Source: Candidatus Yanofskybacteria bacterium (lineage in GTDB: Bacteria; Patescibacteriota; Minisyncoccia; 2-02-FULL-40-12; GWA2-44-9). Taken from it: DNA of 51,076 bases. Positions 1,758-46,800 of the stretch are shown piece after piece. The stretch covers positions 208,087 through 259,162 of the forward strand of contig DOSG01000008.1 in assembly GCA_003514055.1 (NCBI GenBank), given 5' to 3'. How positions within the stretch are numbered: the first letter of the stretch is position 1; the number at the start of each line of letters is the position of its first letter. A program made the position numbers and the translations under genes. A model generated the notes under the pieces. That model was not told where the DNA came from, made no database searches, and worked only from the letters and a program-made list of their open reading frames with translations.

Positions 1758-1795
1758 GAAAGAGCCCGACTCGCCTAGGCGAGTCGGGCTCTTTC
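1758..1795. terminator. Perfect 38-bp palindrome between convergent genes; probable bidirectional terminator
   Basis: GAAAGAGCCCGACTCGCCT|AGGCGAGTCGGGCTCTTTC is its own reverse complement; lies between stops at 1726 (+) and 1837 (-). Confidence 0.8.
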
Positions 1796-1836
1796 TCAAT
1801 GCTCAGAATTCAAAATTAAAAGTTGCTTCTGATGAC

Positions 1837-23043: not shown

Positions 23044-24207
23044 TTAAATTAGAGATTTTATATTATCGGCATAATTTTTGATGGCCACGGTCTTATCAAA
23101 TCTCGATAAGTCGGTTTCAACTTTGATATCTTTCGCTTCTTTGAAGGCTTTTATAGCTTGGTCTGATGACCAGTCGATAATCCGCCCGTTATTAGAATTC
23201 AAAACGTCCGGGACTATCCCTACTAGCGTAGCTATGACCGGAATACCGCAAGCTAGGGCTTCTAAGATAACTCTGGGGCCGCCTTCATTGTAGGATAACA
23301 TTATTAGCGCGCGAGATTCATTTATAAGTTTGGCAACCTCGGCGGAATCTTTGGCCCAACCATAAAGAATGACACGGTCATTCAATTTTGAATTTTGAAT
23401 TTCTAATTTTAAATAATTATGAAGGGCGCCGTTGCCGACGATTAAGATCTTGAGATTGGATTTTTTGGCTATCTCTAGTAATATGTCTAATCCCTTGTTT
23501 TTCTCTAGGCGTCCAACAAAAATTAGATCGTACTTTTTCTCTAAATTCATGAGCTTAAAAATGTCTAAGTCAATATAAAAAGCTGGAATATATTTGATCT
23601 TACTCTCCGATACTCCTGCCTTTTTCAAGAAACCGGGCACTTCGTTTTTATTGATTACTCTAATCGCTTTAGCCTTGGAAGAATCGATAGATATAAAAAT
23701 TCTGGTCAAAAATTTATAAAAGAATTCTCTAAGATCAGAAGTCCTAGGGTAACCAGGTATGTGCATTATTTCAAGAACATATGGAACTTTGATCTTATTC
23801 CAGAGCATTCTTGCTCCGAGGCCATTATAGAATGGCGGATACTCGTGGACGGTCATGACCCAATTTTGATTTTCTAATTCCCAATGGCGGTCTTTGCCGC
23901 CTAAAAGACCGCCATTAGCGCTTAAAATTTTTAGACCTTCAAAATAAATCCAGAATGGCTGGAGGATTTTGGGCCAGGGTGAGGGATGAATGAAAACGTT
24001 GCCGAAGAATTTATTCTCATAACGAAGGGCGCCTTTTCCGGCAGCTGCCGGAGCCAAAAGACCGCGATCATTCCGGACTCTTGGGCAGATGATGTCGATA
24101 CGATCCCAGTGTTTATGGAATTCCTCAAGAGTATTATAAAAAGCGCCGCGCTTCCCTTCGGCCAATGCAGACGCACCAACACCGGAAATCATTAGTAAGC
24201 GAGCCAA
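23044..24207 (-). CDS. GT4 glycosyltransferase containing two in-frame palindromic insertions
   Basis: FVGRLEKNKG, EGGPRVILEALACGIPV; foreign-looking segments DRGLLAPAAAGKGALR and NGGLLGGKDRH. Confidence 0.88.
   Translation of the reverse strand: MARLLMISGVGASALAEGKRGAFYNTLEEFHKHWDRIDIICPRVRNDRGLLAPAAAGKGALRYENKFFGNVFIHPSPWPKILQPFWIYFEGLKILSANGGLLGGKDRHWELENQNWVMTVHEYPPFYNGLGARMLWNKIKVPYVLEIMHIPGYPRTSDLREFFYKFLTRIFISIDSSKAKAIRVINKNEVPGFLKKAGVSESKIKYIPAFYIDLDIFKLMNLEKKYDLIFVGRLEKNKGLDILLEIAKKSNLKILIVGNGALHNYLKLEIQNSKLNDRVILYGWAKDSAEVAKLINESRALIMLSYNEGGPRVILEALACGIPVIATLVGIVPDVLNSNNGRIIDWSSDQAIKAFKEAKDIKVETDLSRFDKTVAIKNYADNIKSLI
23883..23916. repeat. Palindromic element copy A (in CDS)
   Basis: AATGGCGGTCTTT-GCCGCCTA-AAAGACCGCCATT; 34 bp (23886-23919) identical to intergenic 43378-43411. 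Confidence 0.9.
24022..24065. repeat. Palindromic element copy F (in CDS; hybrid arms, nested inner palindrome)
   Basis: ACGAAGGGCGCCTTT + TCCGGCAGCTGCCGGA (perfect 16-bp palindrome, 24037-24052) + GCCAAAAGACCGC. Confidence 0.8.
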
Positions 24208-24208
24208 T

Positions 24209-25408
24209 CTATTTTAAATTAGTAAATTTATTAGGCAGTAAAACTTCTTCTATCAAAGTGACAGTTTCTCCATACATCCTTTCTAGGCTGAATTCTGCAA
24301 CGGTCTTTTTACCCTCTTCGATAAATTTCTCCTTAAGCTCGGGCATATTGTGTAGAGTCTTGATGGCTTCAATCAAATTAAATTCATCATTATACCTGAC
24401 CATAAAACCATTCTCGCCCTGGTTGATTATCTCTTTGTTGCCACCAACGGCAGTGGTAATCACCGGAACTCCGGCTGCCATAACCTCCAATATCTGATGG
24501 GAGAAACCTTCGTAGCCGGTATTGAGCACAAAAACATCAGAAGCGGCGAGATATAGAGCTAGCTCATCCTTGGTCTTGGCACCAACCACAAAAACTTTTC
24601 GATCCAGGCCCATGTTCTTAACCATACTTTCGAGAACTTTTTTCTCGGGACCATCGCCAATAATAACCAACCTGAAGAATTGTCCAACTTCGAAAAGTTT
24701 GGGCATAATCTTGATCAACATTTTAAAACCCTTCCACGGAACCAGTCTTCCGATAGAAACGATCACGTTGCCAGCTATTCCTATTTTCTTCCGAGCTTCT
24801 TCTCTGGCGATATCCAATGGCTTAAAATCGGTTCCGTTATATACGACTCTTATCTTTTCGCCATATACGCCCCAGCCCTTAACGACACCGGAAAGATATT
24901 CGGACGGCACGATTACGGCATTCGCGTTCTCGCATATTTTTTTCTGAATCTTATGAAGCAGTCCAATCTTGCCGCGTTTTGGTTCTTTCTGGAAATCGTT
25001 CACCATCAAATAAGTCTTTCCGGTGTTGATCGCCTTCTCCCAGGCACTGTCACCCACGATTTTGACGATAAATTTCTTCTTATAAGATTTGGCCGCCTTA
25101 AAGGCCCAGTAACCAGCGCTTATGGAATTGAGCGCTAGGACTAGATCGGCCTTCTTAGCCAATCTTCTGGCCTTAAGATAATACGACAGATATTTGATAA
25201 CTTTGGGGGGCCTTCTCCAAACACGAACTATCTTAAATGGCAGACTATCATCTTCTTTGACTTTCCATTTATTGGTATATGTTAAAACGATCACTTGGTG
25301 ACCATTCTCAGTGAGCTTCTTTCCCAAGGTTTTCGCATATGAAGCTGGCCCACCGATGTCGGGAGGGAAAATGCCAGTACAGATTAGGATTTTTGATTTT
25401 TCAGTCAA
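24209..25408 (-). CDS. GT4 glycosyltransferase
   Basis: GIFPPDIGGPASY, SIGRLVPWKG, YEGFSHQILEVMAAGVPV. Confidence 0.93.
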   Translation of the reverse strand: MTEKSKILICTGIFPPDIGGPASYAKTLGKKLTENGHQVIVLTYTNKWKVKEDDSLPFKIVRVWRRPPKVIKYLSYYLKARRLAKKADLVLALNSISAGYWAFKAAKSYKKKFIVKIVGDSAWEKAINTGKTYLMVNDFQKEPKRGKIGLLHKIQKKICENANAVIVPSEYLSGVVKGWGVYGEKIRVVYNGTDFKPLDIAREEARKKIGIAGNVIVSIGRLVPWKGFKMLIKIMPKLFEVGQFFRLVIIGDGPEKKVLESMVKNMGLDRKVFVVGAKTKDELALYLAASDVFVLNTGYEGFSHQILEVMAAGVPVITTAVGGNKEIINQGENGFMVRYNDEFNLIEAIKTLHNMPELKEKFIEEGKKTVAEFSLERMYGETVTLIEEVLLPNKFTNLK

Positions 25409-25429
25409 AAGAGTAATTTTGAATTTATT

Positions 25430-26137
25430 CTACTTCTGGACAAATAGATTATACCTGATTATGTGCCAAATGGCGGCAAGGCCGTCTTTCCATGTAATCT
25501 TCTTACCGTCGCCGTAGGTCCTGCCATGATAAGAAATGCCAACCTCGTAAATTCTAAGCTTATGTTTGGATATCTGCGCGGTTATCTCCGGCTCTATACC
25601 GAACCTTTCGGCGGTCAAACACGGTAATATCTCCTTTATAGCCTTCCCAGTGAAGACTTTATACCCAGTTTCCATATCTGACAAATTCAGATTAGTGAGT
25701 ATGTTCGAAAGATATGTTAAGTATTTATTTGCCGCATAGTGCCAGAAATACAGTATCCTGCGAGGATGTACAGTGACAAATCGAGACCCATAGACTACGT
25801 CAGCGTGGCCATCTACGATAGGCTGGATAATAGTTGCATATTGATTCGGATCATATTCGAGATCTGCATCTTGAATTATAACGATGTCGCCAGTTGCCCC
25901 TTTAAATCCTTCTCGAATGGCGGCGCCCTTGCCTCGATTCTCAGCCATGAAAATAACTTGGTGTCTAGATTGATATTTTCTTAGAATCTCCCGCGTTCTA
26001 TCTTTCGAACCGTCATCAACTAAAATTACCTCTTTCGAATATGGTAAATCGACCTTCTCCACGGTAGAGATAACCTTCTCTATGGTCTTTTCTTCGTTAT
26101 ATATCGGAATTACAATACTAATCTTTTTTATAAACAT
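25430..26137 (-). CDS. GT2 glycosyltransferase, polyprenol-phosphate mannosyltransferase (DPM1)-like
   Basis: SIVIPIYNE, VDDGSKD, NRGKGAA, IIQDADLEYDP, SDMETGYK, GIEPEIT. Confidence 0.92.
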   Translation of the reverse strand: MFIKKISIVIPIYNEEKTIEKVISTVEKVDLPYSKEVILVDDGSKDRTREILRKYQSRHQVIFMAENRGKGAAIREGFKGATGDIVIIQDADLEYDPNQYATIIQPIVDGHADVVYGSRFVTVHPRRILYFWHYAANKYLTYLSNILTNLNLSDMETGYKVFTGKAIKEILPCLTAERFGIEPEITAQISKHKLRIYEVGISYHGRTYGDGKKITWKDGLAAIWHIIRYNLFVQK

Positions 26138-26149
26138 AAAAGGTAAATA

Positions 26150-26242
26150 CTAAGCACTAAATTCTAAATCCTAACAATTAAGATCTCAGAACTTTTTTTA
26201 CAGATTCATAAATACTAAATTCTAAGCCCTAGATCCTAAACA
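26150..26242. repeat. Two arrays of degenerate 7-bp tandem repeats (CTAAATY-like)
   Basis: CTAAGCA CTAAATT CTAAATC CTAACAA (26150-26177) and CTAAATT CTAAGCC CTAGATC CTAAACA (26215-26242), each preceded by TAAATA. Confidence 0.75.
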
Positions 26243-26273
26243 AATTATGAACCATAAGAATAAACTCTAAATA

Positions 26274-27491
26274 TTAATTTGGAATGAAGTTATAGATTTC
26301 TTGGAACTTTTCAGAAATTGATTGCCAGCTATATTTATTTTTAGCCAATTCTCTGCCGTTCTCAATCAGCCTTCTCCTTAAATCAACGTCAGACAGAACC
26401 ATTTTTATCTTCTTTGCCAAGTCTTCGTGATCGCCGACCCCACAAAAAAGACCAGTGACTCCATCTTCCAGAAAATCTACGATTCCACCGACACGAGTAC
26501 CGATTATTGGCACACCCACAGCCATAGCCTCCAAAAATGCATTACCTAGCCCTTCCGAATAAGATGGCCTGGCAAATACATCGGCCATACTTAAATAACC
26601 CGGTAGATCTTCGTAGTAGATATCCCCGGCGAAGATGATTCTATCAGACACGCCCAACTCTACGGTTAGACTCTCTAGCTCGTCAGCCATTGGCCCAGAT
26701 CCGATGATCACCAACCGAGTCTTTAAATTTCCGATAACCTCATCTAGCCGAGCAAAGGCCTTTATTAAAACATCGACGCCGTTCTTAGGTACCAATCGCG
26801 ATACAGTCATGACTATTCTTTCATCTTCGCGAATATTTAATCTCGACTTCATCTCTGACCCCTCAAAATCTAGTTTCTTGAATAAGTCCGAGTCGACTCC
26901 GTTGGGTATCACGATTATAGTTGCTTTCTTATTTAATTTTCGAGCAAATTCGGCCAGATAGTTGCTAATGGCCGTTATCTTATCGGACTTTTTGATGACT
27001 AGGCCTCTCATCATCTTAAGAAGCGCGCCTTGGCTATCCAACTCTTTCCCTTCTTGAAGTGTTGTGATTAACGAAACGTTGGGATCGAAGATCTTAACCA
27101 GGTAAGCGGCGATCGCGCCGTAGGAAGCTTGATATGCGTGGAGACGGCTATAGACACCGTAGCAATGGCGGTCTTTTCCGGCAGTTGCCGGAGCGAAAAG
27201 ACCGCCATTGCCGGCGAGGCTGCGGGCTTTGAAAAAGCCGAGTATCGGGAGGAGATATTTATCGAATTTAAATCCCAGCCCCAGCCTATGGACTTTAATA
27301 TTGCCTACTTGTTCGGTCTTCTTGTTGGCTCTCGAGAAACGGGCTGTAATTAAATCAAAGCTAATCTCAGGAAGCCTTCGGCAGATTTCTTCCATGGCTA
27401 TTTCTGAGCCTCCGATCATTGGCCTAAAAGCCGTGGAAAATAGTAAAATTCTCTTTGATTCTGGTTCCATTTTATGATACCATCGTCTCAT
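26274..27491 (-). CDS. GT4 glycosyltransferase with one in-frame palindromic insertion
   Basis: IGGSEIA, IPNGVD, TVSRLVPKNG, EGLGNAFLEAMAVGVP; insertion NGGLFAPATAGKDRH. Start may be ATG 27470 (MEPES). Confidence 0.92.
   Translation of the reverse strand: MRRWYHKMEPESKRILLFSTAFRPMIGGSEIAMEEICRRLPEISFDLITARFSRANKKTEQVGNIKVHRLGLGFKFDKYLLPILGFFKARSLAGNGGLFAPATAGKDRHCYGVYSRLHAYQASYGAIAAYLVKIFDPNVSLITTLQEGKELDSQGALLKMMRGLVIKKSDKITAISNYLAEFARKLNKKATIIVIPNGVDSDLFKKLDFEGSEMKSRLNIREDERIVMTVSRLVPKNGVDVLIKAFARLDEVIGNLKTRLVIIGSGPMADELESLTVELGVSDRIIFAGDIYYEDLPGYLSMADVFARPSYSEGLGNAFLEAMAVGVPIIGTRVGGIVDFLEDGVTGLFCGVGDHEDLAKKIKMVLSDVDLRRRLIENGRELAKNKYSWQSISEKFQEIYNFIPN
27162..27211. repeat. Palindromic element copy E (in CDS; nested inner palindrome)
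   Basis: GCAATGGCGGTCTTTT ... AAAAGACCGCCATTGC (16-bp arms) around TCCGGCAGTTGCCGGA. Confidence 0.9.
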
Positions 27492-27528
27492 AAATAAGGG
27501 CTTAGTTCAACCTAATTAGCTAGATAAA

Positions 27529-28683
27529 ATGAGGATTCTATTCATTATCACTCAATCAGAGTTTGGCGGCGCCCAGCGCTTTATTTTTAATTTAGTAAAT
27601 AAGCTAAGAGTTGGCCCAAAATACGAGATTACCGTGGCCACGGGAAGCGATGGCGGCGGCAACCTGCTAAAATCAGTTCAGAATATTGGCCTACCGATTC
27701 ACGAGATTAAGCATTTAAAACGAAATATAAGCATCGGACACGATATACTTGCGATATTTGAGATTAGAAATTTAATTCATGAGACTAAGCCTGATGTTCT
27801 ATTCTTAAATAGTTCCAAGGCTGGCTTTATCGGCGCCCTAGCGGCAAAGTTTCCAATGCGTATCAAAAACTTAAAGATTGTCTATCGCATTGGCGGATGG
27901 ACATTTAATGATCCCTGGCCAAATTGGAAGAAAAAGATGTGGGCTATCCTAGAGAGAATTAGCGCCCGCTGGAAAGATTATATAATCGTCAACTGCAAAT
28001 CTGACTACGATCAAGCTCACAAACTAAAGATTCGCCCCAGGAACAAGCTAGTCTTGGTTCATAATGGCATCGATCCGTACAAAATCAATTTACTCACCAA
28101 AGAAGAGGCTAGGCTAAAATTATTTGAGAAAATCTCTAGACAATGGGGCAAGGTGTTCCAGGTTAAAAGAATCGTCGGCACCATAGCCAATCTCTACCCG
28201 GTCAAAGCTCTTGAATATTTCGTAGAGACCGCTGATTATTTCAAGAAAGACGAAGATACTATTTTTGTAATTATCGGCGAGGGTCAAGAATATGAGAGAC
28301 TCCAAAGTCTGATTAAGACCAAAGGCCTAGAGAAAAGCGTGTTCATAATTAGTCAGCCGACTGAAGCTAGTCAGCTTCTATCCGCCTTTGATGTATTCGT
28401 CCTCGTATCTATTAAGGAAGGCTTCTCCTGGAGCCTTCTAGAGGCTATGACCGCTAAATTACCAGTGATATCCACCGACGTTGGTGCCGCCAAAGAGATG
28501 ATTGAGGATGGTAAGAACGGATTTGTAGTGGAAGCCAGAAAACCAGAACAAATAGCGGCCAGGATAAAGGAGATATTTGATAACAGTCGCCTACAGCAAG
28601 AACTTGGCATCCAAGCCCACCAGACCGTCCTATTCAAATTCAGCCTAGATAAGATGGTCAGCCAGATAGAGAGCTTGCTATAG
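27529..28683 (+). CDS. GT4 glycosyltransferase
   Basis: SEFGGAQR, LNSSKAGFIG, VHNGID, ANLYPVK, KEGFSWSLLEAMTAKLPV. Confidence 0.93.
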   Translation: MRILFIITQSEFGGAQRFIFNLVNKLRVGPKYEITVATGSDGGGNLLKSVQNIGLPIHEIKHLKRNISIGHDILAIFEIRNLIHETKPDVLFLNSSKAGFIGALAAKFPMRIKNLKIVYRIGGWTFNDPWPNWKKKMWAILERISARWKDYIIVNCKSDYDQAHKLKIRPRNKLVLVHNGIDPYKINLLTKEEARLKLFEKISRQWGKVFQVKRIVGTIANLYPVKALEYFVETADYFKKDEDTIFVIIGEGQEYERLQSLIKTKGLEKSVFIISQPTEASQLLSAFDVFVLVSIKEGFSWSLLEAMTAKLPVISTDVGAAKEMIEDGKNGFVVEARKPEQIAARIKEIFDNSRLQQELGIQAHQTVLFKFSLDKMVSQIESLL

Positions 28684-28694
28684 TTTCTCTATCT

Positions 28695-28729
28695 GGAAAT
28701 TCTAATTATTAAAATCTAAATCCTAAATA
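28695..28729. repeat. Degenerate 7-bp tandem repeat array
   Basis: GGAAATT CTAATTA TTAAAAT CTAAATC CTAAATA in the intergenic gap. Confidence 0.5.
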
Positions 28730-28740
28730 GTCTAAGGTTT

Positions 28741-30246
28741 ATGGATAAAGCTATAGGAAAATTAGCGCTAGTCTGTCTTTTTGTTTTGATCGGATCGCTG
28801 ATGATCCACGGCCTTTATTCTATAAACCAAGATATCGGGCGACACATTAAAATCGGCCAAGTCATATGGGAAACAAAATCTGTCCCCGACACAAATCTTT
28901 TTTCCTTTACCGTCCCGAATCACCCGTTTGTTAATCACCACTGGCTCAGCGAACTGTTCTTCTATGCTTTGAGCAGTATCGTCAGTCTCAAGTGGTTCAT
29001 CATTTTTAAGGCCATTCTTAATTTATCAGCATTCTTGATAGTCTACACGGCCGTGAGAAAAAGATCTTCCGTAAGCGCGATATTGCTACCGTTCTTCCTT
29101 GCGGCCATGGTCTTCGTAGAAAGAACTGACGTTCGTCCAGAAATCTTTAGCTATCTATATCTGGCACTGTTCCTATACATATTAATTAAGGCTAAATATG
29201 AGGCTAGATATCAATGGCTCTATGCTCTACCATTCATACAAGTCCTTTGGACAAATTATCATATCTATTTCGTTCTCGGTCCAATTATGACTCTATTCTT
29301 CTTAATTGATCGTTACGCCCATGACAGAGAGAATCGTCAGATACTAAAAACCTCGGCTATCGTCTTCGGCCTGACTTGCCTAGCGACGCTAATCAATCCG
29401 AGCTTTGTTACCGGAGCTCTTGAGCCGCTTAACATAATGCGCGACTATGGCTACAGTATCGTCGAGAATCAGTCTATATTTTTTCTTACCGATTACGGCA
29501 TATCAAAATTCACTATATCCGTATTCGAACTATCGATAATCGCTTTAGCTATAAGCTTTTTCGTAGCACTCAAAAATGGGGCCAGAAAAATTACATTTGA
29601 AGCTCTTACAGCAATAACCTTCGCAATTCTTGGCATCTACATGATAAGGAACTTTGGTCCTTATTCACTTGTCCTGGCAACTATCGGATCACTAAACTTC
29701 GGATACGTTAAGTCGGAAATCAAGGAACGTGGACTGACGATATTGTACACGTTAGCCACTATCATCATCTTGCTAGTAACACTTCAGGTTATCAATGGGA
29801 ATTTCTACGCCTTCACCGCTAGTGGCAAGAAGTTTAATCTTGAAGTTCCGACTGGCGCCGATAATGCAGTTAATTTTATAAAACAAAATAATATTAGGGG
29901 GCCGGTTTTTAATAACTTCGACATAGGCAGTTTCATGATATGGAAGATGTGGCCGGATGAGAAAGTATTTGTTGATGGCAGGCCCGAAGCCTACGGCGTA
30001 GACTTCTTCGAAAAAATATATAAACCCATGCAGGAGAGTCCCGAAACCTGGGCCAGACTATCAGAAGAATATAAAATAAACTACATTCTATTCGCTCATA
30101 CCGACATAACGCCCTGGGCCCAGACATTTCTAAACTATATCATCACCGATAAAAAATGGGCTATGGTATATATAGATAATAACTCGGTTATATTCTTAAA
30201 AGATACCATCGACAACAAGGCCTTGATTAGTAAATTCCGTAAATAA
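28741..30246 (+). CDS. Polytopic membrane protein, probable GT-C-fold (lipid-linked sugar) glycosyltransferase
   Basis: About 11 TM helices; DIGRHIKIG...FS.T.P.HPFVNHHWLSE first loop, DVRPE, C-terminal FNNFDIGSFMIW and VFVDGRPE; function inferred. Confidence 0.6.
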   Translation: MDKAIGKLALVCLFVLIGSLMIHGLYSINQDIGRHIKIGQVIWETKSVPDTNLFSFTVPNHPFVNHHWLSELFFYALSSIVSLKWFIIFKAILNLSAFLIVYTAVRKRSSVSAILLPFFLAAMVFVERTDVRPEIFSYLYLALFLYILIKAKYEARYQWLYALPFIQVLWTNYHIYFVLGPIMTLFFLIDRYAHDRENRQILKTSAIVFGLTCLATLINPSFVTGALEPLNIMRDYGYSIVENQSIFFLTDYGISKFTISVFELSIIALAISFFVALKNGARKITFEALTAITFAILGIYMIRNFGPYSLVLATIGSLNFGYVKSEIKERGLTILYTLATIIILLVTLQVINGNFYAFTASGKKFNLEVPTGADNAVNFIKQNNIRGPVFNNFDIGSFMIWKMWPDEKVFVDGRPEAYGVDFFEKIYKPMQESPETWARLSEEYKINYILFAHTDITPWAQTFLNYIITDKKWAMVYIDNNSVIFLKDTIDNKALISKFRK

Positions 30247-30289
30247 AAAGACGGTACTGATTCTCTCAATACCGTCATGTCTCGTTATC

Positions 30290-31660
30290 CTAGAAATCTC
30301 CGGTGGCACCACCGCCACCAGAGGAACCGCCGGCGAATCCACTAAATGAAGAATCGCTGCCTCCGCTATCATGACTACCACCACCGTAATACGAACTATC
30401 CAAGTGTGTCGAATGATCCGACCTATAAATAGTGCCACTATCCGACGAATATCTCGGCGGATTGAGAAGATTATCGGCGATAACAAGTAGGGCATAGATG
30501 GATACCCAATTAGGGTTAACCGTCTTAGACTGATTTTCAGCATCACTTAATTTACCTTCTGCTTGGGCAATTTGTCTATCATCGACAATAGCTTTTCCTC
30601 GAACAGTTCCAACTTTCTTCGGAACAGACTCGAGAAGTTCTTTCGATTTCCTCTCGGCTTCCTTTCTTTCACGAATTTTTGATTCAATACTACTAATCAC
30701 TGCATCGGGAGAAATTCGAGCAAGACCACGGAGAACATCTCCGAGAGCATACAATCGTCTCTCCAAAGCACTCAAATTATCTTCTTGAGCAATTGCAAGG
30801 GCGTTGAGATTGCTTTCAATATCAGAAACTATTTGTGGAAGAGCGGCCAATTTGTCATTTGCTGCCCTATATTCGTCTAGCGGAATTTCTTCGGCCAGTT
30901 GTTCCAGTCTTGCCATCGCCGGAAGATATTTTACACGGATAGTTGCTATACCTTCTCGGCCAACATCCATACTATTCTTGATTAAATCTTTGAGCTCATT
31001 GCGACGGCGCCTTCGATATAGAAATACTACGGGCGGACCGAATAAAACTGTCAGGGCGAGCACCACAAGGAATATATATTTAAACGCTACCGCGAACTCG
31101 GCATTTACACGAGCCCGTTCCTCTTCTTGCCTTCTCTTCTCTTCGGCTCGTGCTTCAGCCCGTGCTTGAAATGGTTTTGAGCCCAAATGGTCAATAATCC
31201 CATTGACCGTAGCTTCTGTGCCTGCTGGCCAATTATTAGCCTTAAAGTTCGGAATTGCGTATTGCCGAATTATATTACCCGACGTAATGTCAGTAAGATC
31301 CGGCTCAAGCCCATATCCGACTTCAATGCGAACCTTGCGTTCAGCCGGTGCTAAGAGCATCAAGACACCATTGTCTTTGCCTTTTTCACCGATACCCCAC
31401 TGAGCAAAGAGTTTACTTGCGTAATCCTCTATTGGCATATCGCCAAGCGAAGATACGGTCACCACGGCCAGCTCGATGCCCGTAATATCACGATAAGATC
31501 GTAATCTAGATTCCAAATTCTTAGCCTGATCAACAGTCAAAACATGAGCAAAATCATTCACAAAACCAACTGGCCTGGGAAAAACTTGGCCCAGAGCAGC
31601 ATTGGTCATCAACAGAATAGATATTAACACTAGGCCGATTCGAGCTTGTTGTCTCATCAT
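30290..31660 (-). CDS. TPM (YgcG-like) domain membrane protein with coiled-coil region and Gly/Ser tail
   Basis: GFVNDFAHVL, ELAVVTV, WGIGEKGKDNGVLML, VRIEVGYGLE; GGSSGGGGATGDF terminus; AGGAG SD 7 nt before the ATG. Confidence 0.9.
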   Translation of the reverse strand: MMRQQARIGLVLISILLMTNAALGQVFPRPVGFVNDFAHVLTVDQAKNLESRLRSYRDITGIELAVVTVSSLGDMPIEDYASKLFAQWGIGEKGKDNGVLMLLAPAERKVRIEVGYGLEPDLTDITSGNIIRQYAIPNFKANNWPAGTEATVNGIIDHLGSKPFQARAEARAEEKRRQEEERARVNAEFAVAFKYIFLVVLALTVLFGPPVVFLYRRRRRNELKDLIKNSMDVGREGIATIRVKYLPAMARLEQLAEEIPLDEYRAANDKLAALPQIVSDIESNLNALAIAQEDNLSALERRLYALGDVLRGLARISPDAVISSIESKIRERKEAERKSKELLESVPKKVGTVRGKAIVDDRQIAQAEGKLSDAENQSKTVNPNWVSIYALLVIADNLLNPPRYSSDSGTIYRSDHSTHLDSSYYGGGSHDSGGSDSSFSGFAGGSSGGGGATGDF

Positions 31661-31711
31661 CCTGTGTCTCCTGTCCTGATTGGAAAGTTACTAGAATTAA
31701 CCGATGGGCAT

Positions 31712-31739
31712 ATTATACAACTAATTCATTAAAAATCAA
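31712..31739 (-). promoter_or_regulatory. Sigma70-type promoter of the TPM gene
   Basis: TTGATT (31739-31734), 16 nt, TATAAT (31717-31712). Confidence 0.55.
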
Positions 31740-31774
31740 GGTTCGCTATGTTGGCTTCAAGAAACCACGCACCC

Positions 31775-31883
31775 TTCGATCATAGAGACATTGCTCCCTT
31801 GGGCCAAAACATTCTTAAACTACATTGTTACTGATAAGAAATGAGCCATGATATATGTCGATGATGACTCGGTTATATTCTTA
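31775..31883 (+). pseudogene. Degenerate second copy of the 3' end of 28741..30246
   Basis: FDHRDIAP[+1 nt]WAKTFLNYIVTDKK*AMIYVDDDSVIFL versus FAHTDITPWAQTFLNYIITDKKWAMVYIDNNSVIFL (30091-30198); 85 of 108 nt identical by hand. Confidence 0.85.
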
Positions 31884-32426
31884 TTTCCCGATGGCGGCCT
31901 TCGAAACCAAGAAGGCCGCCATCATAATAAGCACCGACAGAGCGATCAGAAACCTGCCAAGACCGAGTGCGAATATGCTACCAATAATTGTAGCCGATTC
32001 TCTTTCGGGCTCGTAACTAATTAAATTATCAGGCGACCCGACGTCGGCTGAAGGCATCGACAATATCTTGCTGTCATAATGGCTTCTGCCAGAGACACTA
32101 ACGAGATTGCCATTAAGCGATTCCGGAACTGGAGAGCTAGTCAAACTTGGAGTTGGCGTGGGGCTAGAAATAAAAAAATTACCTACCGAACCAAGTTTCT
32201 CTGAATAGATCTTCGCCTTCGGAGTAGGACTGATCAAGCCAGAGACAGCGCCAACTGGACCAATTTGGTTAATCGAGCTAGTCGCCTCTTCGACAACGCC
32301 GCTAAGCGTATGGCCCAAATCGCTAGATAGTCTACCGGTAATCTCAGATGCCTCTGCAGACGAGAAAAACCAAAGACCTGCAACCAGTAAAATCGGGCTT
32401 AGTAGCCTATATGCTTTGAAAGCCAT
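31881..32426 (-). CDS. Hypothetical surface protein with signal peptide, Ser/Pro/Thr linker and C-terminal TM anchor
   Basis: The track ORF starts at 32480, inside the upstream gene; ATG 32426 (MAFKAYRLLSPILL...AEA) is the plausible start. Its last codons are a palindromic element. Confidence 0.7.
   Translation of the reverse strand: MAFKAYRLLSPILLVAGLWFFSSAEASEITGRLSSDLGHTLSGVVEEATSSINQIGPVGAVSGLISPTPKAKIYSEKLGSVGNFFISSPTPTPSLTSSPVPESLNGNLVSVSGRSHYDSKILSMPSADVGSPDNLISYEPERESATIIGSIFALGLGRFLIALSVLIMMAAFLVSKAAIGK
31890..31923. repeat. Palindromic element copy H (diverged, compensatory changes)
   Basis: GATGGCGGCCTTC-GAAACCAA-GAAGGCCGCCATC, preceded by TTCCC as in copies A and C. Confidence 0.8.
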
Positions 32427-33531
32427 AATTTGTGTAGTATGGCCCACCGATAGAGCCAGGCGGTATCCTAACCTCGACAACGACTTGCACTTGTCGACCA
32501 GCAGTCACGGCATCTAAATCGCTACTAAGCTTCATTGGATTTGAATAAGTGCCAGAATTGTTTACGATAATCGACCTATTGGGAACATCAGCATTAGATG
32601 ATTGGACCGAATATATCCTCACATTATTAGCAGTAGCTATTATATTAGATCCGCTAGACCAATCATCAAATTTCAAAGACAGATCCTCTTGATTCATCGG
32701 AACCGTGATATCGAAAGCCCATTTCCAGCCATGATCGAAGTTCCCATCGGCTATCGCCGAACTCCTGAGTATAGTTATATTAGTTACCGATATATCACTG
32801 ACATCGCCTGGCTCGCTCGTTGACGTGGGAGATGGACTTGGCGATGAGACCGGAGAAGGTGTTGCCGTAGGCGATGAACTTGGTTCAGGCGTTGGAGAAT
32901 ACGATGAGCTTGGAGTCGGCGATGAAGATGGAGTAGACTCTAAGCCGTCGAACCCAACTGACAAAGATATGAGATCATGGCTTGTATGGGTCTCAGCTGA
33001 AGGATTTCTGAAAGCAAGAAACCTTATCTTTAAATTATTAATCTTGGAAACACTATTTACGATATCCGTCAGATCAAAGTTATCGATGACATCATTATTC
33101 AGGGCCCCTTCCGTTGTTAGTAATAATTGATGAGAGAAATCTACGCCATCCCAGATTTCTAGCTTAGCTCCAGCCAGAGCCCCAGACCTTCTATACTTAT
33201 GGGATATAGATACGGAATTTATAGTTGAGTCTCCCGCAATGTTGGGAGAAAAGATAAATTCTAGATATTTACTTTCGTCGTAGGTGCCATCGTTGGGCCA
33301 AGGTTCGTTACTCTGGATACGAGTATTATCGTTAGCGCTTAATTTAGATATATCGATAGCACTAAAACTAGCCGAAACGTCGGAGCTATCATCAAAACCG
33401 TTGCTGATTGTATAGTTCTGATTAGTACTCGCACTAATATCAGACGATGTAGTAAGCCAGCCAAAACCCCATATAGAGACGCTCACTATAAGAATCGCGG
33501 CAGAAAAAGATTTTTTCAGCTCATCGTTCAT
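32407..33531 (-). CDS. Hypothetical secreted/surface protein; two beta-rich domains joined by a Ser/Pro/Thr linker
   Basis: N-terminal hydrophobic segment, STPSSSPTPSSSYSPTPEPSSSPT linker. Confidence 0.75.
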   Translation of the reverse strand: MNDELKKSFSAAILIVSVSIWGFGWLTTSSDISASTNQNYTISNGFDDSSDVSASFSAIDISKLSANDNTRIQSNEPWPNDGTYDESKYLEFIFSPNIAGDSTINSVSISHKYRRSGALAGAKLEIWDGVDFSHQLLLTTEGALNNDVIDNFDLTDIVNSVSKINNLKIRFLAFRNPSAETHTSHDLISLSVGFDGLESTPSSSPTPSSSYSPTPEPSSSPTATPSPVSSPSPSPTSTSEPGDVSDISVTNITILRSSAIADGNFDHGWKWAFDITVPMNQEDLSLKFDDWSSGSNIIATANNVRIYSVQSSNADVPNRSIIVNNSGTYSNPMKLSSDLDAVTAGRQVQVVVEVRIPPGSIGGPYYTNYGFQSI

Positions 33532-33563
33532 GCGATACCAATGTTTCTTACATTATAACTCCA

Positions 33564-35534
33564 CTACTTGAGCCCATCAAGAAGCTTAGCAAAAGCCTGA
33601 GCAAGCTCGGCGTCTAGTCCAGGCAAAGACATCCCATCTTTTATATTTTTCAACGCTTCGTCACGATCATCCATCGCTCTATACGTCACGGCCAAGTTAT
33701 AATAAGTTGTCGGATCCGATGGCTTTATTCTCTTAACCTCTTCTAGCATTTTTATAGCTTCCTCGGGCTGATTGTTTTTCGCATATATTGAGGCTAAATT
33801 CTGGTAGGCAAACGGGAAGTTATTATCCTTCTCGATAGCAAGCCTATAATATTCCGTCGCTTTCTCGGTATCCCCTCTGTCTCGATAGATGTTTCCGAGA
33901 TTGTAGTATGGCTGAGGATATATATTATTTTTGTCAGCGATAATCTGCTCATATATTCTGGCCGCATCGTCTAGGCGACCCTTATCTGAGTATATATTAC
34001 CTAGATTATTCAATATTCTGATGCTTCCGGGATTATATCTAATTATCTCTTCATAAAACGCTATGGGATTACCCCAGATTAGGTTTCTCCTTATCGATTG
34101 GACGGCGAAAAATAACAGATAACCAATGACAACCAGCCAAAATAGCCAAGTCATCACCGCACAAAGGCGCCCTTTGTATCCGCCAGGGGCGGATAGGCGC
34201 CGACCGCCTTCGCAAGATTGTAAGATGCCCCACAGCTTGTCCAAGTAGAAGGCCAATAACGCGAAGAATCCGATCAATGGCAGGTATAGCCAATGCTCAT
34301 AGATGATGGCATTAATCGGAATTATGCCTGAAACCATACTTAAAGACACAAAGAACCAGGACCAACCGAAGAACCAAATCCTAAAGTTAGAAATTTCCCA
34401 ATGGCGGTCTTTGAAGCCTAAAAGACCGCCATTGCCAGCCGAGGCGATCTCCGACCCCCGAGCTTGGAACTTTCGCATTTCTTTTCTGCTTATATGCCGG
34501 TCTTTGCCTGCCTGCGCAGACGGGCCGCCTAAAAGACCGCCGTCTAAATATTTAGGGCTTAGTGCTTCCTTTCTGTATAAAATGACCCCGATAGCCACGA
34601 TCGCCATTATTGCTAGAAATCCGAGCCAGACTGGCCATTGGAAAAATGAAGTATGTACCGAAAAATCCCTTTCCATGTGCAAACCCGTAGGAACAAATAT
34701 AAGCCTTATATACTCGAGAAATACATGGAAGAAAGTATATATTCTATAAATTAGATTATCGGCATAAACATTCGAAGCATTGTAGAAGTTGAGGGTATTC
34801 TGAAAATTGAGGACGGTAAGTCTCAGGATTCCATAGACTCCGGAAATTGCGAAAAATGGAATCGCCTTAACGATCCCCTGCCACAAAGACTTAAAGAACT
34901 TGTCTCGAGAAAGGAAGGATACGTAGAAGACTACCAGAAGTACTGGCAGTAATATGGCCGTCTCTCGGCTTAGAACGGCTAGAATCATAGATGCGAGACC
35001 TAACGTCCGATACAAGACCTTTTTGGAGCTATCCACATTGATTCTAATGAAAGCCGCAAGAGCCAGAAGCATAAAGAAGACGGACATTGGATCTCCACGG
35101 CCAGATATGTATGACACGGCTTCAACTTGGAGTGGACTCAGCAGAAAAAGCATAGACGCAAAGAAAGAGATAGTCTTCTTCCGAAATACGTACAGAAGGA
35201 TCAGGAATGCAAGTATGGCATTAAAAACGTGGAAGGCATTACTGAGTAAATGATATCCGAAAGGATCGGTGCCAGAGATCGCATAGTTAAAGGCGAAAGT
35301 TAAGAGAAGAAAGGGACGATAATAGTTACTATTTAGGCCGAAACCAGACAATACGTCTTTAGTAAATATTTCCTTGAGATGAGAGAAATCATGAACATAA
35401 TTATTGCCCACTATCCAGTCATCATCGTCCCAGAATAGCCCGTTGTTAAGATTAAAGGCATAGACCCCCGCGCCCAACAACACGATGAGGGCAATCAGCC
35501 CAATATTCTTTTTTATTGTATCAGTAAAAGACAT
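33564..35534 (-). CDS. TMTC-like membrane protein (GT-C-like N-terminus, C-terminal TPRs); candidate protein O-glycosyltransferase, with three palindromic insertions
   Basis: FWDDDDWIVGN, YYRPF, PFGYHLLS, EAVSYISGRGD, SRETAI, YEHWLYLP; TPRs (NNLGNIY, YYNLGNIY, AYQNLASIY). Confidence 0.82.
   Translation of the reverse strand: MSFTDTIKKNIGLIALIVLLGAGVYAFNLNNGLFWDDDDWIVGNNYVHDFSHLKEIFTKDVLSGFGLNSNYYRPFLLLTFAFNYAISGTDPFGYHLLSNAFHVFNAILAFLILLYVFRKKTISFFASMLFLLSPLQVEAVSYISGRGDPMSVFFMLLALAAFIRINVDSSKKVLYRTLGLASMILAVLSRETAILLPVLLVVFYVSFLSRDKFFKSLWQGIVKAIPFFAISGVYGILRLTVLNFQNTLNFYNASNVYADNLIYRIYTFFHVFLEYIRLIFVPTGLHMERDFSVHTSFFQWPVWLGFLAIMAIVAIGVILYRKEALSPKYLDGGLLGGPSAQAGKDRHISRKEMRKFQARGSEIASAGNGGLLGFKDRHWEISNFRIWFFGWSWFFVSLSMVSGIIPINAIIYEHWLYLPLIGFFALLAFYLDKLWGILQSCEGGRRLSAPGGYKGRLCAVMTWLFWLVVIGYLLFFAVQSIRRNLIWGNPIAFYEEIIRYNPGSIRILNNLGNIYSDKGRLDDAARIYEQIIADKNNIYPQPYYNLGNIYRDRGDTEKATEYYRLAIEKDNNFPFAYQNLASIYAKNNQPEEAIKMLEEVKRIKPSDPTTYYNLAVTYRAMDDRDEALKNIKDGMSLPGLDAELAQAFAKLLDGLK
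34161..34208. repeat. Compound palindromic element copy G (in CDS)
   Basis: ACAAAGG-CGC-CCTTTGT, then TATCCGCC-AGG-GGCGGATA, then GGCGCCGACCGCC; encodes GGRRLSAPGGYKGRLC. Confidence 0.7.
34400..34433. repeat. Palindromic element copy C (in CDS)
   Basis: AATGGCGGTCTTT-GAAGCCTA-AAAGACCGCCATT; encodes NGGLLGFKDRH. Confidence 0.9.
34494..34543. repeat. Palindromic element copy D (in CDS; nested near-palindrome)
   Basis: ATGCCGGTCTTTG + CCTGCCTGCGCAGACGGG + CCGCCTAAAAGACCGCCGT; encodes DGGLLGGPSAQAGKDRH. Confidence 0.85.
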
Positions 35535-37429: not shown

Positions 37430-37461
37430 AACCAAAAACCGCCCGAAGGCGGTCTTTGGTT
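37430..37461 (-). terminator. Intrinsic terminator of the S-layer-like gene
   Basis: Minus strand AACCAAAGACCGCC-TTCG-GGCGGTTTTTGGTT: cUUCGg loop, one G-U pair, U-rich 3' side. Confidence 0.85.
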
Positions 37462-41617: not shown

Positions 41618-42604
41618 TTAAAAACCGGCAGCGCTATTCCTCTGGCCAGGCGTTCCATTAATCGCATTGCCCTTAGAATCAAGGCCATTCTTAATCAATC
41701 CATTGTTCGACCTCCAATTCGATCTATCATTACTAGAAGCTGACGGATCCACTCTTTCCATAGAACTCTTGGTCTCGTTATCTCCGGCAAACCAACCAGA
41801 CGAACAGTTCACCTCGTCTATGATTTGGCCAGCACTATTTACTAACTGGACGGCCTCGCCGCTGTTATTAAGGCCAGCCTTACTGAAGCTAACAGCCAGA
41901 TCAGCCCAAACGTCAGAGATCGTATTGTTGTCGGTCCTTTCTATTAAATAATAACCTCGCGCAGGGATACTCTTTGATAAGCTCAACGTGAAGCCGCCAT
42001 CTGCTGTTTTTAGTGACAATCCCGAAAGACTGACTGCAATTTCGTTTGGGTTGTACAATTCGATCCACTCATCGTTAGTCGCGGCAGAGGTCCCCATCCA
42101 GGCAATTTCATTTATAACGACCGCGCGCGGTGAGGTAGTTAATTCTGGCGCTGGCGTAGCAGATGAAGTAGCAATAGGTGTCGGTGTTGAACTTGGTGTC
42201 AAATTTGGTGTCGGTGAAACTGGAGCTGACGATGGACTTGGCAACGACGCAGATGTTGGCCTTGCAGATGGTGACTGCAATACGACGGGAGCGGGAGTAA
42301 TCACAGGAGACACACCAGCAGTAATAGCCTGAGGACTAGGTGACATTATTGGTGACAAGCTGGGCTTTGGTGACATTATTGGTGACAACTTCGGTGACAC
42401 GAGCTTGTCACCTATCTTGTCACCAATAATATTAGCGGCTAAAGGAGTGTCCGCGCCGCTTAGTGAGTCGACGGAAAAGTAATCGCCGTTATCCGAGTTA
42501 AAATACGTAACTGTTTTTTGAGATAGCAAAAAGACGCCTAAAAGCGCCGCGGCAGAGATGAAGAAAAATAGGAAACGTAGTTTAGACGAATTTTCGTCTT
42601 CCAT
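41618..42604 (-). CDS. Membrane-anchored lamin-tail-domain (LTD) protein
   Basis: VVINEIAWMGT, NDEWIELYN, LNNSGEAVQL, GTPGQRNS motifs; N-terminal TM and Ser/Pro/Thr stalk. Confidence 0.88.
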   Translation of the reverse strand: MEDENSSKLRFLFFFISAAALLGVFLLSQKTVTYFNSDNGDYFSVDSLSGADTPLAANIIGDKIGDKLVSPKLSPIMSPKPSLSPIMSPSPQAITAGVSPVITPAPVVLQSPSARPTSASLPSPSSAPVSPTPNLTPSSTPTPIATSSATPAPELTTSPRAVVINEIAWMGTSAATNDEWIELYNPNEIAVSLSGLSLKTADGGFTLSLSKSIPARGYYLIERTDNNTISDVWADLAVSFSKAGLNNSGEAVQLVNSAGQIIDEVNCSSGWFAGDNETKSSMERVDPSASSNDRSNWRSNNGLIKNGLDSKGNAINGTPGQRNSAAGF

Positions 42605-42638: not shown

Positions 42639-42686
42639 TAAATACGAAGGGCGCCTTTGAGGCCAAAAAGGCGCCCTTCGTATTTA
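42639..42686 (-). terminator. 20-bp-stem hairpin downstream of the wHTH gene (palindromic element family)
   Basis: TAAATACGAAGGGCGCCTTT-GAGGCCAA-AAAGGCGCCCTTCGTATTTA; a lone right arm AAAGACCGCCATT follows at 42699-42711. Confidence 0.7.
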
Positions 42687-42718
42687 TTTCGCTGACTGAA
42701 AGACCGCCATTGATATTA

Positions 42719-43306
42719 TTAGCTGACTTCGACGGAATAGCGCACCGCCTTATTATCTTCCTTCCTTTGGATAAAACCCTGATCGGTGAGTTCCTTCAGG
42801 CTCCTCTTCACGGTTCTCTCGGATATAAGATTGAATTCTTCGATTACTTGCTTGGTCCTAACGCTTGGGACCTGCTTGATGAATTCGAGTATTCTTTCTT
42901 TCGTAGGAGAAAGATCTTGGTTTGCCTGTCGTTGAATGAGATTCTTTTTCTGCGGTAATTTCTGAGCTGGGACTTTCTTGATCAACTTATCGCCATCACC
43001 TTGCACCTCACTAGCAGATTTAAGAATGTCTAGCTTGAGTCTTAGAAAATTTTTCTTAGCCAAAAGTAGGGGACCAGGAGATACGGTTTTGAGATGCTCT
43101 AGGTAATCAAGAGTTTCTAACATCTTATCAATCGGATTGATTATTCTTTTTACTTGCGACTCCCCTTCGGTTTTTTTATAAACTACGATGAGCTCCGAAA
43201 GATTCAAATACATTTTACGCACAAAGAAAGGATCTTTAGTCCCCGCCATTAACTTTGCCGTAGATACAAGGCATCCAATAAATTTGTTGACTCTATCCTC
43301 TGCCAT
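42719..43306 (-). CDS. Putative transcriptional regulator: helical N-terminal domain plus C-terminal winged HTH (DeoR/ArsR-like)
   Basis: LSPTKERILEFIK...VRTKQVIEEF.LISERTVKRSLKELTDQGFIQRK. Confidence 0.8.
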   Translation of the reverse strand: MAEDRVNKFIGCLVSTAKLMAGTKDPFFVRKMYLNLSELIVVYKKTEGESQVKRIINPIDKMLETLDYLEHLKTVSPGPLLLAKKNFLRLKLDILKSASEVQGDGDKLIKKVPAQKLPQKKNLIQRQANQDLSPTKERILEFIKQVPSVRTKQVIEEFNLISERTVKRSLKELTDQGFIQRKEDNKAVRYSVEVS

Positions 43307-43347: not shown

Positions 43348-43374
43348 TACGGATGATGGCTACAAGAGGAACAC

Positions 43375-43408
43375 AACGGCGGTCTTTGCCGCCTAAAAGA
43401 CCGCCATT
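43375..43408. repeat. Palindromic element copy B (intergenic)
   Basis: AACGGCGGTCTTT-GCCGCCTA-AAAGACCGCCATT; the single arm change is a G-U pair on the minus strand. Confidence 0.9.
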
Positions 43409-43473
43409 AGCCCGAACGAGAGGTTAGCCATTGCTATTAAGGCAGCAAAAAACGAAGAGTATCTTTTCGTTTT

Positions 43474-43508
43474 ATATAAGAACGCCCCTACAAGGGGCGT
43501 TCTTATAT
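43474..43508 (-). terminator. 16-bp-stem hairpin after the glycoside hydrolase operon
   Basis: ATATAAGAACGCCCCT-ACA-AGGGGCGTTCTTATAT, 15 nt past the stop at 43524. Confidence 0.7.
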
Positions 43509-46758: not shown

Positions 46759-46800
46759 AGCATACAAAGGGCGCCCCATAGGGGGCGCCCTTTGTATGCT
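46759..46800 (-). terminator. 19-bp-stem hairpin downstream of the FKBP gene (palindromic element family)
   Basis: AGCATACAAAGGGCGCCCC-ATAG-GGGGCGCCCTTTGTATGCT. Confidence 0.7.

Follow-up and report, generated by a model that had tools for sequence, protein, structure and literature searches.

Short in-frame hairpin repeats, some with a second stem-loop, in a Candidatus Yanofskybacteria genome

The 51,076-nucleotide window analyzed here (contig DOSG01000008.1, positions 208,087 to 259,162) comes from an uncultured groundwater member of Candidatus Yanofskybacteria (Parcubacteria, candidate phyla radiation [CPR]) and carries a dispersed repeat in the form of a short hairpin, to which we give the working name S-hairpin. 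The window holds eight members of this family, five of them inside coding sequences, and three of the copies contain a second, smaller palindrome within the loop of the first. On balance, we favor the interpretation that S-hairpins are a repeat resembling repetitive extragenic palindromes (REPs) and Rickettsia palindromic elements (RPEs) with long-form subfamilies, whose inner stem-loops are probably swapped, lost, or gained by copy-choice or slippage.

RESULTS

S-hairpins form a dispersed family with covarying stems

The outer hairpin has the form (C)AATGGCGGTCTTT–8 nt–AAAGACCGCCATT(G), and a basic copy measures 38 nt. Read in the sense of the gene, its design is (C)AATGG-NNG-YCTTT, an 8-nt loop of the type T-N-GGC-NN-C, and AAAGR-CNN-CCATT(G), and the arms of the window copies extend over 13 to 20 bp. 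When up to 1 mismatch was allowed, the 11-mer arms of the GGCGGTCTTT/AAAGACCGCC hairpin gave 13 matches, relative to 0.77 expected. The window members were listed by searching for half-sites, scanning for hairpins, and applying a covariance model, which was used for a census of ~217 kb, including related contigs (labeled L006, L129, and so on) from six related lineages. Besides the eight window members, the covariance model recovered further copies in four of these lineages and related palindromes only in the other two. The stems covary between subfamilies (S1, GGCGGTC; S1', GGGAGTC; S3, GGCGGCC; S2, GGGCGCC): the outer stem is paired in 96.8% of cells, both sides change in 6 of 14 pairs, and the covariation score was matched by 0 of 500 shuffles.

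All copies in the window lie on the minus strand. Basic S1 hairpins are found at 23881..23918 (copy #1; 13-bp arms, 8-nt loop GCCGCCTA on the plus strand, folding z = -5.4, 58.4 bits), where the hairpin is in frame within a family GT4 glycosyltransferase gene (23044..24207); at 34398..34435 (#4; loop GAAGCCTA, z = -6.1), within a TPR membrane-protein gene (33564..35534); and at 43373..43410 (#6; 55.4 bits), an intergenic position upstream of a helix-turn-helix (HTH) gene (42719..43306). Directly 3' of this HTH gene is an S2 variant (42639..42686) with 20-bp arms, a GGGCGCC core, and the loop GAGGCCAA (z = -9.5), and 12 nt from it stands an isolated S1 arm (42699..42711) that reads AAAGACCGCCATT on the plus strand. 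An S3 variant (GATGGCGGCCTTC/GAAGGCCGCCATC, loop GAAACCAA; z = -7.5, 52.6 bits) occupies 31888..31925 at the 3' end of the open reading frame (ORF) 31881..32480, which reads it in a different frame.

The remaining members are long forms. Copy #3 (27162..27211) has perfect 17-bp outer arms (-25.1 kcal/mol, z = -8.2) and lies in a second GT4 gene (26274..27491), while copy #5 (34490..34547) retains the full basic loop GCCGCCTA between partly decayed arms. Copy #2 (24022..24069) is a chimera: in the sense orientation, it joins an S1-type left arm and an inner palindrome to an S2-type right arm, AAAGGCGCCCTTCGT, and its 15-nt arm ACGAAGGGCGCCTTT is identical to that of the S2 hairpin at 42647. Intact long forms were folded as one extended hairpin (z = -8.2 to -9.8), whereas the fold was no better than that of shuffled sequences for the chimera, whose outer arms pair at 8 of 13 positions (z = -0.9), or for #5, whose decayed arms pair at 10 of 13 (z = -1.1).

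S-hairpin flanks show no conservation, and the copies stand singly; #5 and #4 are in direct rather than inverted orientation. In every copy, the asymmetric loop is oriented with local transcription. A hairpin at 37434-37457 was rejected as a family member since the order of its arms is reversed, as in an ordinary terminator.

Searches farther afield yielded little. A scan of a genome collection for GGCGGTCTTT-N(4-34)-AAAGACCGCC, a pattern that proved too generic, returned terminators and a Prevotella-type repeat, with no family member among the matches listed. A metagenome scan for long-loop copies, in a collection from which the source samples are evidently missing, gave four matches, two of them useful (L127 and L129), whereas a scan of viral contigs and a BLAST search of phages and plasmids with the long forms gave none. 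A word search with the concatenated element peptides found no match, in an index that does not detect 12-amino-acid (aa) motifs, and a motif profile found none among 1.8 billion representative proteins, the motif being too short for significance.

Two inner modules recur at a fixed position in the loop

The loops of the long copies measure 20, 20, and 26 nt, compared with 8 nt in the basic copies. The resulting additions of 12, 12, and 18 nt keep the reading frame, as the sequence-only reading that drew attention to these loops had noted. The inner palindromes are also as that reading described them. In copy #2, TCCGGCAGCTGCCGGA (24037-24052) is a perfect 16-nt palindrome; in copy #3, TCCGGCAGTTGCCGGA (27177-27192) is identical to it at 15 of 16 positions, and we refer to both as module A. 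Module B, CCTGCCTGCGCAGACGGG (34507-34524) in copy #5, is an imperfect 18-nt palindrome in which 7 of 9 pairs are Watson-Crick, 1 is G-T, and 1 is a mismatch. Each module is bounded by the left arm GGTCTTT and by what is left of the loop of a GGCGGTCTTT...AAAGACCGCC hairpin. The proposal that the loop end is kept holds exactly for the third copy, which preserves GCCGCCTA, whereas the module-A copies retain GCCA or GCGA only.

This pattern is not due to chance. Module A gave 4 strand-matches, relative to 0.41 expected, and module B gave 2, relative to 0.00 expected; furthermore, the whole window contains 16 compact GC-rich palindromes, two of which are near-identical and fall within hairpin loops, which make up ~0.2% of the sequence. 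Three independent outer hairpins contain module A (window 24037, window 27177, and the intergenic L129:14324), and module B was recorded at three independent sites, with two types of covarying stem. The seven long-form copies show only these two module types. Read in the sense direction, a long form consists of the left arm, a segment resembling the 8-nt loop (TAGGCGG, TCGGCTT, TCAGCTT, TCGC, TGGC, or TCG), the module, and the right arm; upon folding, the module stem stacks directly on the 3' arm, and the loop segment becomes a 5' bulge, forming an asymmetric internal loop. Module B is an exact 18-nt addition, because deleting 18 nt between the GGC...GGC repeats of #5 restores the basic loop TAGGCGGC. 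The position of the modules is constant, as is their orientation, with a possible exception for module B: the window version has 1 mismatch to the reverse complement of the L137 version but 3 in the same orientation, a difference that, by sequence comparison, could reflect a flip.

Across the ~217 kb from the six lineages, every copy of module A or B lay within an S-type hairpin. The sequence-only reading had suggested at least two palindrome families that target hairpin loops; two discrete, recurrent modules do exist, and they differ in presence at orthologous sites, but they are not free-standing, and the search for stand-alone copies that the same reading had proposed returned none in these ~217 kb. 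One candidate for a stand-alone module A, TCCGGCAGCCGGA at 40289, was discarded, since it encodes a conserved NPAAG and shows no insertion relative to orthologs.

Intragenic copies behave as insertions

The GT4 glycosyltransferase encoded at 23044..24207 (387 aa, minus strand) carries #1 and #2; a second (26274..27491, 405 aa, minus strand) carries #3 in its hypervariable inter-domain linker; and a 656-aa multi-pass membrane protein with C-terminal TPR repeats (33564..35534, minus strand) carries #4, #5, and a further insertion hot spot in loops of variable length. The encoded peptides are NGGLLGGKDRHW for #1, DRGLLAPAAAGKGAL / DRGLLAPAAAGKGALRY for #2, NGGLFAPATAGKDRH / NGGLFAPATAGKDRHC for #3, NGGLLGFKDRHW for #4, and DGGLLGGPSAQAGKDRH for #5. 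All five S1-type intragenic window copies are read in a single frame as NGGLL…GKDRH, whereas the S3 hairpin is read in another. Peptides of this type occur in the two GT4 enzymes, the TPR membrane protein, and a 505-aa membrane protein, which has a module-B copy in L139 and no element in the window. The same orientation and frame are used at six independent coding sites, even though 2 to 6 of the six possible frames lack stops, and in L139, where the host gene runs opposite to its neighbors, the orientation of the element goes with the gene.

Among 240 homologs of two host proteins, the element peptide is restricted to the closest relatives, and homologs of ≤59% identity lack element copies. 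Alignments place the elements in linkers or loops that vary from 0 to ~50 residues. S-hairpin copies in unrelated genes and in intergenic DNA match nucleotide for nucleotide, so their homology is at the DNA level. Taken together, these results show that S-hairpin copies behave as insertions.

Orthologous sites differ in module content

In L129, where the TPR gene is ~90% identical, both the module-B copy and the basic copy of this gene are present. L129 also has module A in an intergenic copy whose arms are perfect and whose loop measures 21 nt; the addition of 13 nt fits the earlier suggestion that added lengths are multiples of 3 only within coding sequences, although this is a single case. 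At the glycosyltransferase linker, the window has module A, whereas the L006 ortholog of the 405-aa protein (85% identity) has a basic hairpin with the loop TAGGCGGC at the codon of #3. Beside this basic hairpin, at about positions 600 to 700 of L006, we observed an additional ~90-nt AT-rich insert with AAATTC/GGATTT-type repeats (peptide ...KLEIQNSNPGISDLGFRIYA) that has no counterpart in the window.

A more distant lineage (L137 to L140), whose TPR protein is 56% and whose 505-aa protein is 62% identical, uses the covarying stem AATGGGAGTCTT/AAGACTCCCATT, and module B is present in 3 of 3 copies: an intergenic one whose 18-bp stem is perfect, another within the 505-aa gene, and a decayed one at the site orthologous to #5. 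This is as expected if the composite hairpin is the unit. The intergenic copy lies directly after the homolog of the HTH gene, so that the orthologous 3' site carries a basic S2 hairpin in the window and an S1' hairpin with module B in L137; there, the element (L137:1206-1267) ends in TTTT after the gene. At the #5 site, module B is present in three lineages, and L144 has a decayed element of basic length.

Two observations concern the TPR gene itself. Directly 5' of hairpin #4, L129 has a 1-nt deletion (GGCTGGC to GGCT-GC; L129:5746-5815, window equivalent ~34436-34440) that splits the gene into two ORFs; either the frameshift is genuine, or the assembly is wrong at the hairpin. Comparison of window 33564-35534 with L129:4600-6650 also revealed a mosaic composed of stretches that are 100% identical and others of 80 to 90% identity, which suggests, as far as the alignment goes, recombination between related strains. 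Because equally long identical tracts occur elsewhere in this mosaic, the 100% identity of the segment from #5 to #4 was not taken to mark a larger composite element.

S-hairpins share features with several known repeats

Like S-hairpins, RPEs are palindromic repeats in a bacterium whose genome is reduced; they occur in frame in unrelated Rickettsia genes, where they add a conserved peptide, and are also intergenic (PMC10969869). S-hairpins likewise lie in frame in unrelated genes, encode a conserved peptide in one frame, and occupy variable surface or linker segments. In contrast, RPEs measure ~100 to 150 bp and belong to Rickettsia, whereas S-hairpins measure 38 nt (12 to 13 codons), or 50 to 64 nt in their long forms, and belong to a CPR bacterium; their length (38 to 64 nt) and taxon set them apart from RPE-1 to RPE-10, to which they have no apparent sequence relationship, although the two were not compared directly. 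To our knowledge, modular inner hairpins are not a described feature of RPEs.

Like REPs, S-hairpins are short, GC-rich, imperfect palindromes of 20 to 40 nt with a genome-specific consensus and covarying stems. REPs, however, are extragenic, are often paired as REPINs, and have a 5' GTAG-type head, whereas S-hairpins are mostly intragenic (5 of 8 window copies), are single, and have no GTAG-like head. No REP-associated tyrosine transposase (RAYT; Y1 transposase) is encoded within the 71 kb formed by the window and flanks totaling 20 kb. A related Parcubacteria contig, L141, does encode a 210-aa Y1 transposase (1779-2411, minus strand) with a Pfam Y1_Tnp match; its best NCBIfam match is "REP-associated tyrosine transposase," with an E value of 1.7e-10 that is below the cutoff. 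To either side of the gene stand ATCTATGCT-9 nt-AGCATAGAT hairpins, inverted relative to each other, with GGCGTAGAT after each. These REP-type hairpins (1725-1751, 2512-2540, and, between glycosyltransferase genes, 5032-5058) differ from S-hairpins. Judged by sequence, this arrangement appears to be the classic RAYT/REP layout in a CPR genome, and since this RAYT-like gene has REP hairpins of its own, a REP/RAYT route would be available in Parcubacteria.

Other comparisons are more remote. Unlike miniature inverted-repeat transposable elements, an S-hairpin is an inverted repeat throughout, and no target-site duplication was seen among the 14 copies listed. S-hairpins also differ from intrinsic terminators, given that the T-run of S1 is loop-proximal inside the stem and that most copies are intragenic; true terminators with the reverse arrangement occur nearby (37434-37457 and L133:19671). 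The GC clusters of yeast mitochondrial DNA are small GC-rich palindromes in an AT-richer genome that fall into subclasses and can be in frame in var1, although they are organellar and eukaryotic and have a TAG-flanked target. S-hairpins resemble them in being small GC-rich palindromes with subclasses that can be in frame, but the sequences differ, and the likeness is an analogy only. Finally, quasipalindrome template-switch mutation and the deletion of palindromes by slipped mispairing are mutational mechanisms rather than an element family. Such processes are invoked below for module loss, the possible module-B flip, and a duplication in L127, but they do not explain recurrence at unlinked loci. 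Full-text literature searches did not turn up such elements in CPR bacteria, which, given the incomplete coverage of these searches, is weak evidence.

Other palindromes and the genomic setting

Unrelated in-frame palindromes occupy the glycosyltransferase linker of copy #3 in other lineages. At L141:4108-4155, two 23-nt palindromes (ACTTAGTGGCTgAGCCACTAAGT, twice) together make up a 48-nt palindrome that encodes LVAEPLSKLSGSAT, and L142:925-963 is a 39-nt hairpin with the same ACTTAG...CTAAGT ends. Hairpins thus appear to insert preferentially in this linker, which we regard as a hot spot. Another such site lies in the gene for the TPR protein (34161..34200, minus strand) and consists of rearranged GC-rich palindromes, namely, a TATCCGCC/GGCGGATA hairpin flanked by GGCGCC cores; in relatives (L129:5981-6022 and L144:1576-1619), it holds perfect S2'-type palindromes of 42 to 44 nt (CCCTACAAAGGGCGCCTTTG.../GCCCTACAAAGGTGCCCTTTGTACAAAGGGCACCTTTGTAGGGC) with covarying centers.

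A perfect "inside-out" palindrome, ACAAAGGCWGCCATTGC|GCAATGGCWGCCTTTGT, followed by TTTCTGTGGATAA, was observed at L137:20530-20563, L145:15927-15976 and 14366-14410, and L146:12190-12227 and 13769-13816. Its arms are S1-like in permuted order, and one copy has a central 8-nt palindromic insert (ACAATTGT). This palindrome might serve as an operator or promoter, and a decayed copy of it lies directly beside the module-A hairpin of L129.

Within the window, dense direct and inverted GGTGACA-containing repeats (42339-42430; arms of ≤27 nt, 81 to 88% complementary) lie in a lamin-tail-domain gene (41618..42604). A perfect 38-nt palindrome, GAAAGAGCCCGACTCGCCT|AGGCGAGTCGGGCTCTTTC, between convergent genes (1758-1795) is probably a bidirectional terminator; similar GGGCGCC-core terminators are found at 46759-46800 and 43474-43508.

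The window has a GC content of ~41%, and its genes, mostly on the minus strand, encode glycosyltransferases, methyltransferases, polysaccharide exporters, and membrane proteins. It contains no tRNA, no transposase, and no Rfam match at the gathering score. Exact copies of window proteins occur in groundwater metagenome contigs and metagenome-assembled genomes (JGI 3300002146, Ga0208977_1000013, GCA_001795955.1, GCA_001795995.1, and GCA_003483035.1), and L143 is from the same strain as the window; a protein identical to the 405-aa glycosyltransferase is assigned by NCBI to Candidatus Yanofskybacteria. The segment with the S-hairpins (23.9 to 43.4 kb) is carried by 7 contigs, whereas its flanking genes are present in >70 index blocks. 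The glycosyltransferase cluster is variable between strains, and the repeats may have arrived with it. No further S-hairpin copies were detected in the 10 kb beyond each window end.

DISCUSSION

We interpret the outer hairpin as a dispersed, nonautonomous repeat family whose copies would settle where they are tolerated, that is, in intergenic 3' regions and in the hypervariable linkers and loops of glycosyltransferases and membrane proteins. The intragenic S1-type copies are all found in the single orientation and frame that yield a stop-free, Gly-rich peptide (N-G-G-L-L ... G-K-D-R-H). The second palindromes would then be the second stem-loop of long-form subfamilies, with module A or B placed between the 8-nt loop segment and the 3' arm. 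The differences in module content between orthologous sites and the chimera, in which module A lies between arms of types S1 and S2, show that copies exchange or lose loop content; the chimera is direct evidence of exchange between elements. Such exchange or loss could proceed by copy-choice or gene conversion, with the shared arms as homology, and a module could also be lost by slipped-strand deletion of the inner palindrome. More speculatively, the family may owe its spread to an enzyme specific for hairpins of single-stranded DNA, such as a Y1 transposase of the RAYT type.

Two other origins for the modules have to be considered. Modules A and B could be autonomous mini-palindromic elements that insert at the junction of the loop and the 3' arm. 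Several findings are in keeping with this idea: module B is an exact addition to an otherwise intact basic loop and accompanies two loop variants (…GCGGC and …GCTTC) that also exist without it; the same module occurs in the covarying stems S1 and S1' and in the chimera; orthologous sites differ by the module alone; and the window module B is nearer to the reverse complement of the version in the L137 lineage, as if insertion could occur in either orientation. However, there are no stand-alone copies and none in other hairpin types in the 217 kb; 16 to 18 nt leave room for the module's own stem only; position and polarity are fixed relative to the asymmetric loop; and all copies of one lineage are composite, which is simpler if the composite replicates as a unit. 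We therefore prefer long-form subfamilies, based on the lack of stand-alone copies, the fixed position and polarity, and the composite-only lineage, and consider autonomous modules unlikely. Still less likely, in our judgment, is that new palindromes arose in place time after time, as intrastrand template switching or slippage at the tip of the hairpin lengthened each loop, as the sequence-only reading had offered as an alternative. L127 does have a simple loop expansion, a 6-nt tandem duplication (TCTTTT doubled); expanded centers or palindromes of palindromes occur at L141:4108-4155, L144:1576-1619, and L145:14366-14410; and the possible module-B flip is a typical outcome of template switching. 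Nevertheless, identical or near-identical 16- to 18-nt modules occur at unlinked loci and in different lineages, are not derivable from each local flank, and are of two types only. Given this recurrence, independent local template switching cannot have been the usual cause, although a single origin of each module by this route could fit.

The arms themselves might instead be a functional motif, such as a site for a dimeric DNA- or RNA-binding protein, a terminator, or a processing hairpin, that is kept by selection while loop content is free. This possibility is consistent with hairpins occupying the same 3' position at HTH genes of only 33% identity, with compensatory stem changes, and with the constant orientation of the asymmetric loop relative to transcription. 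The inside-out palindrome also recurs upstream of the TPM-phosphatase gene and other genes, beside the conserved TTTCTGTGGATAA box. On the other hand, most copies lie in coding sequences of unrelated proteins, at sites that close homologs lack; the T-run is within the stem rather than after it, which sets the S1 copies apart from classical intrinsic terminators; and no Rfam family matches. A functional explanation strikes us as rather improbable overall, although the intergenic copies may be protein sites or 3' hairpins.

Several points weigh against the interpretation that we favor, of a REP/RPE-like repeat with long-form subfamilies. No mobilizing enzyme was found in the window and its flanks, and the 14 copies listed show neither target-site duplications or flanking direct repeats nor a conserved cleavage motif. 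S-hairpins are few and all cluster at 23.9 to 43.4 kb, with none in the other 50 kb examined; given that this segment is strain variable, the spread could have been local, or the segment could have been imported. The absence of stand-alone modules comes from 217 kb only, since the genome and metagenome collection scans contributed little information. Module A is not a simple addition to the basic loop, because the loop remnant differs (TCGC, TGGC, or TCG), and the differences between sites could reflect either gain or loss of a module. The hairpin shared by the divergent HTH genes could point to a function, as a terminator or as a site for a protein, rather than to selfish spread.

Palindromic repeats that are read in frame are a textbook curiosity, familiar chiefly in Rickettsia. 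S-hairpins are a far smaller, REP-sized in-frame version in a CPR bacterium, located in envelope glycosylation and membrane-protein genes. At a practical level, such hairpins create sites that are prone to frameshifts and make gene calls differ in length in metagenome-assembled genomes. With their long and short forms, covarying stems, and chimera, they provide a compact system for how very short hairpin repeats are copied and homogenized without an obvious transposase. A bolder conjecture, to which we assign little credence, is a hierarchical "hairpin grammar" in CPR/Parcubacteria, in which REP-sized hairpins would lie in frame in linkers while the smaller modules A and B would move between or into their loops via a hairpin-specific single-strand DNA enzyme or templated copy-choice; if true, this would be second-order mobile DNA of 16 to 18 nt that continuously remodels the surface loops of envelope proteins. 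The unrelated palindromes in the same linkers of other Parcubacteria suggest, more broadly, a general and overlooked source of indels and new peptide loops in tiny genomes.

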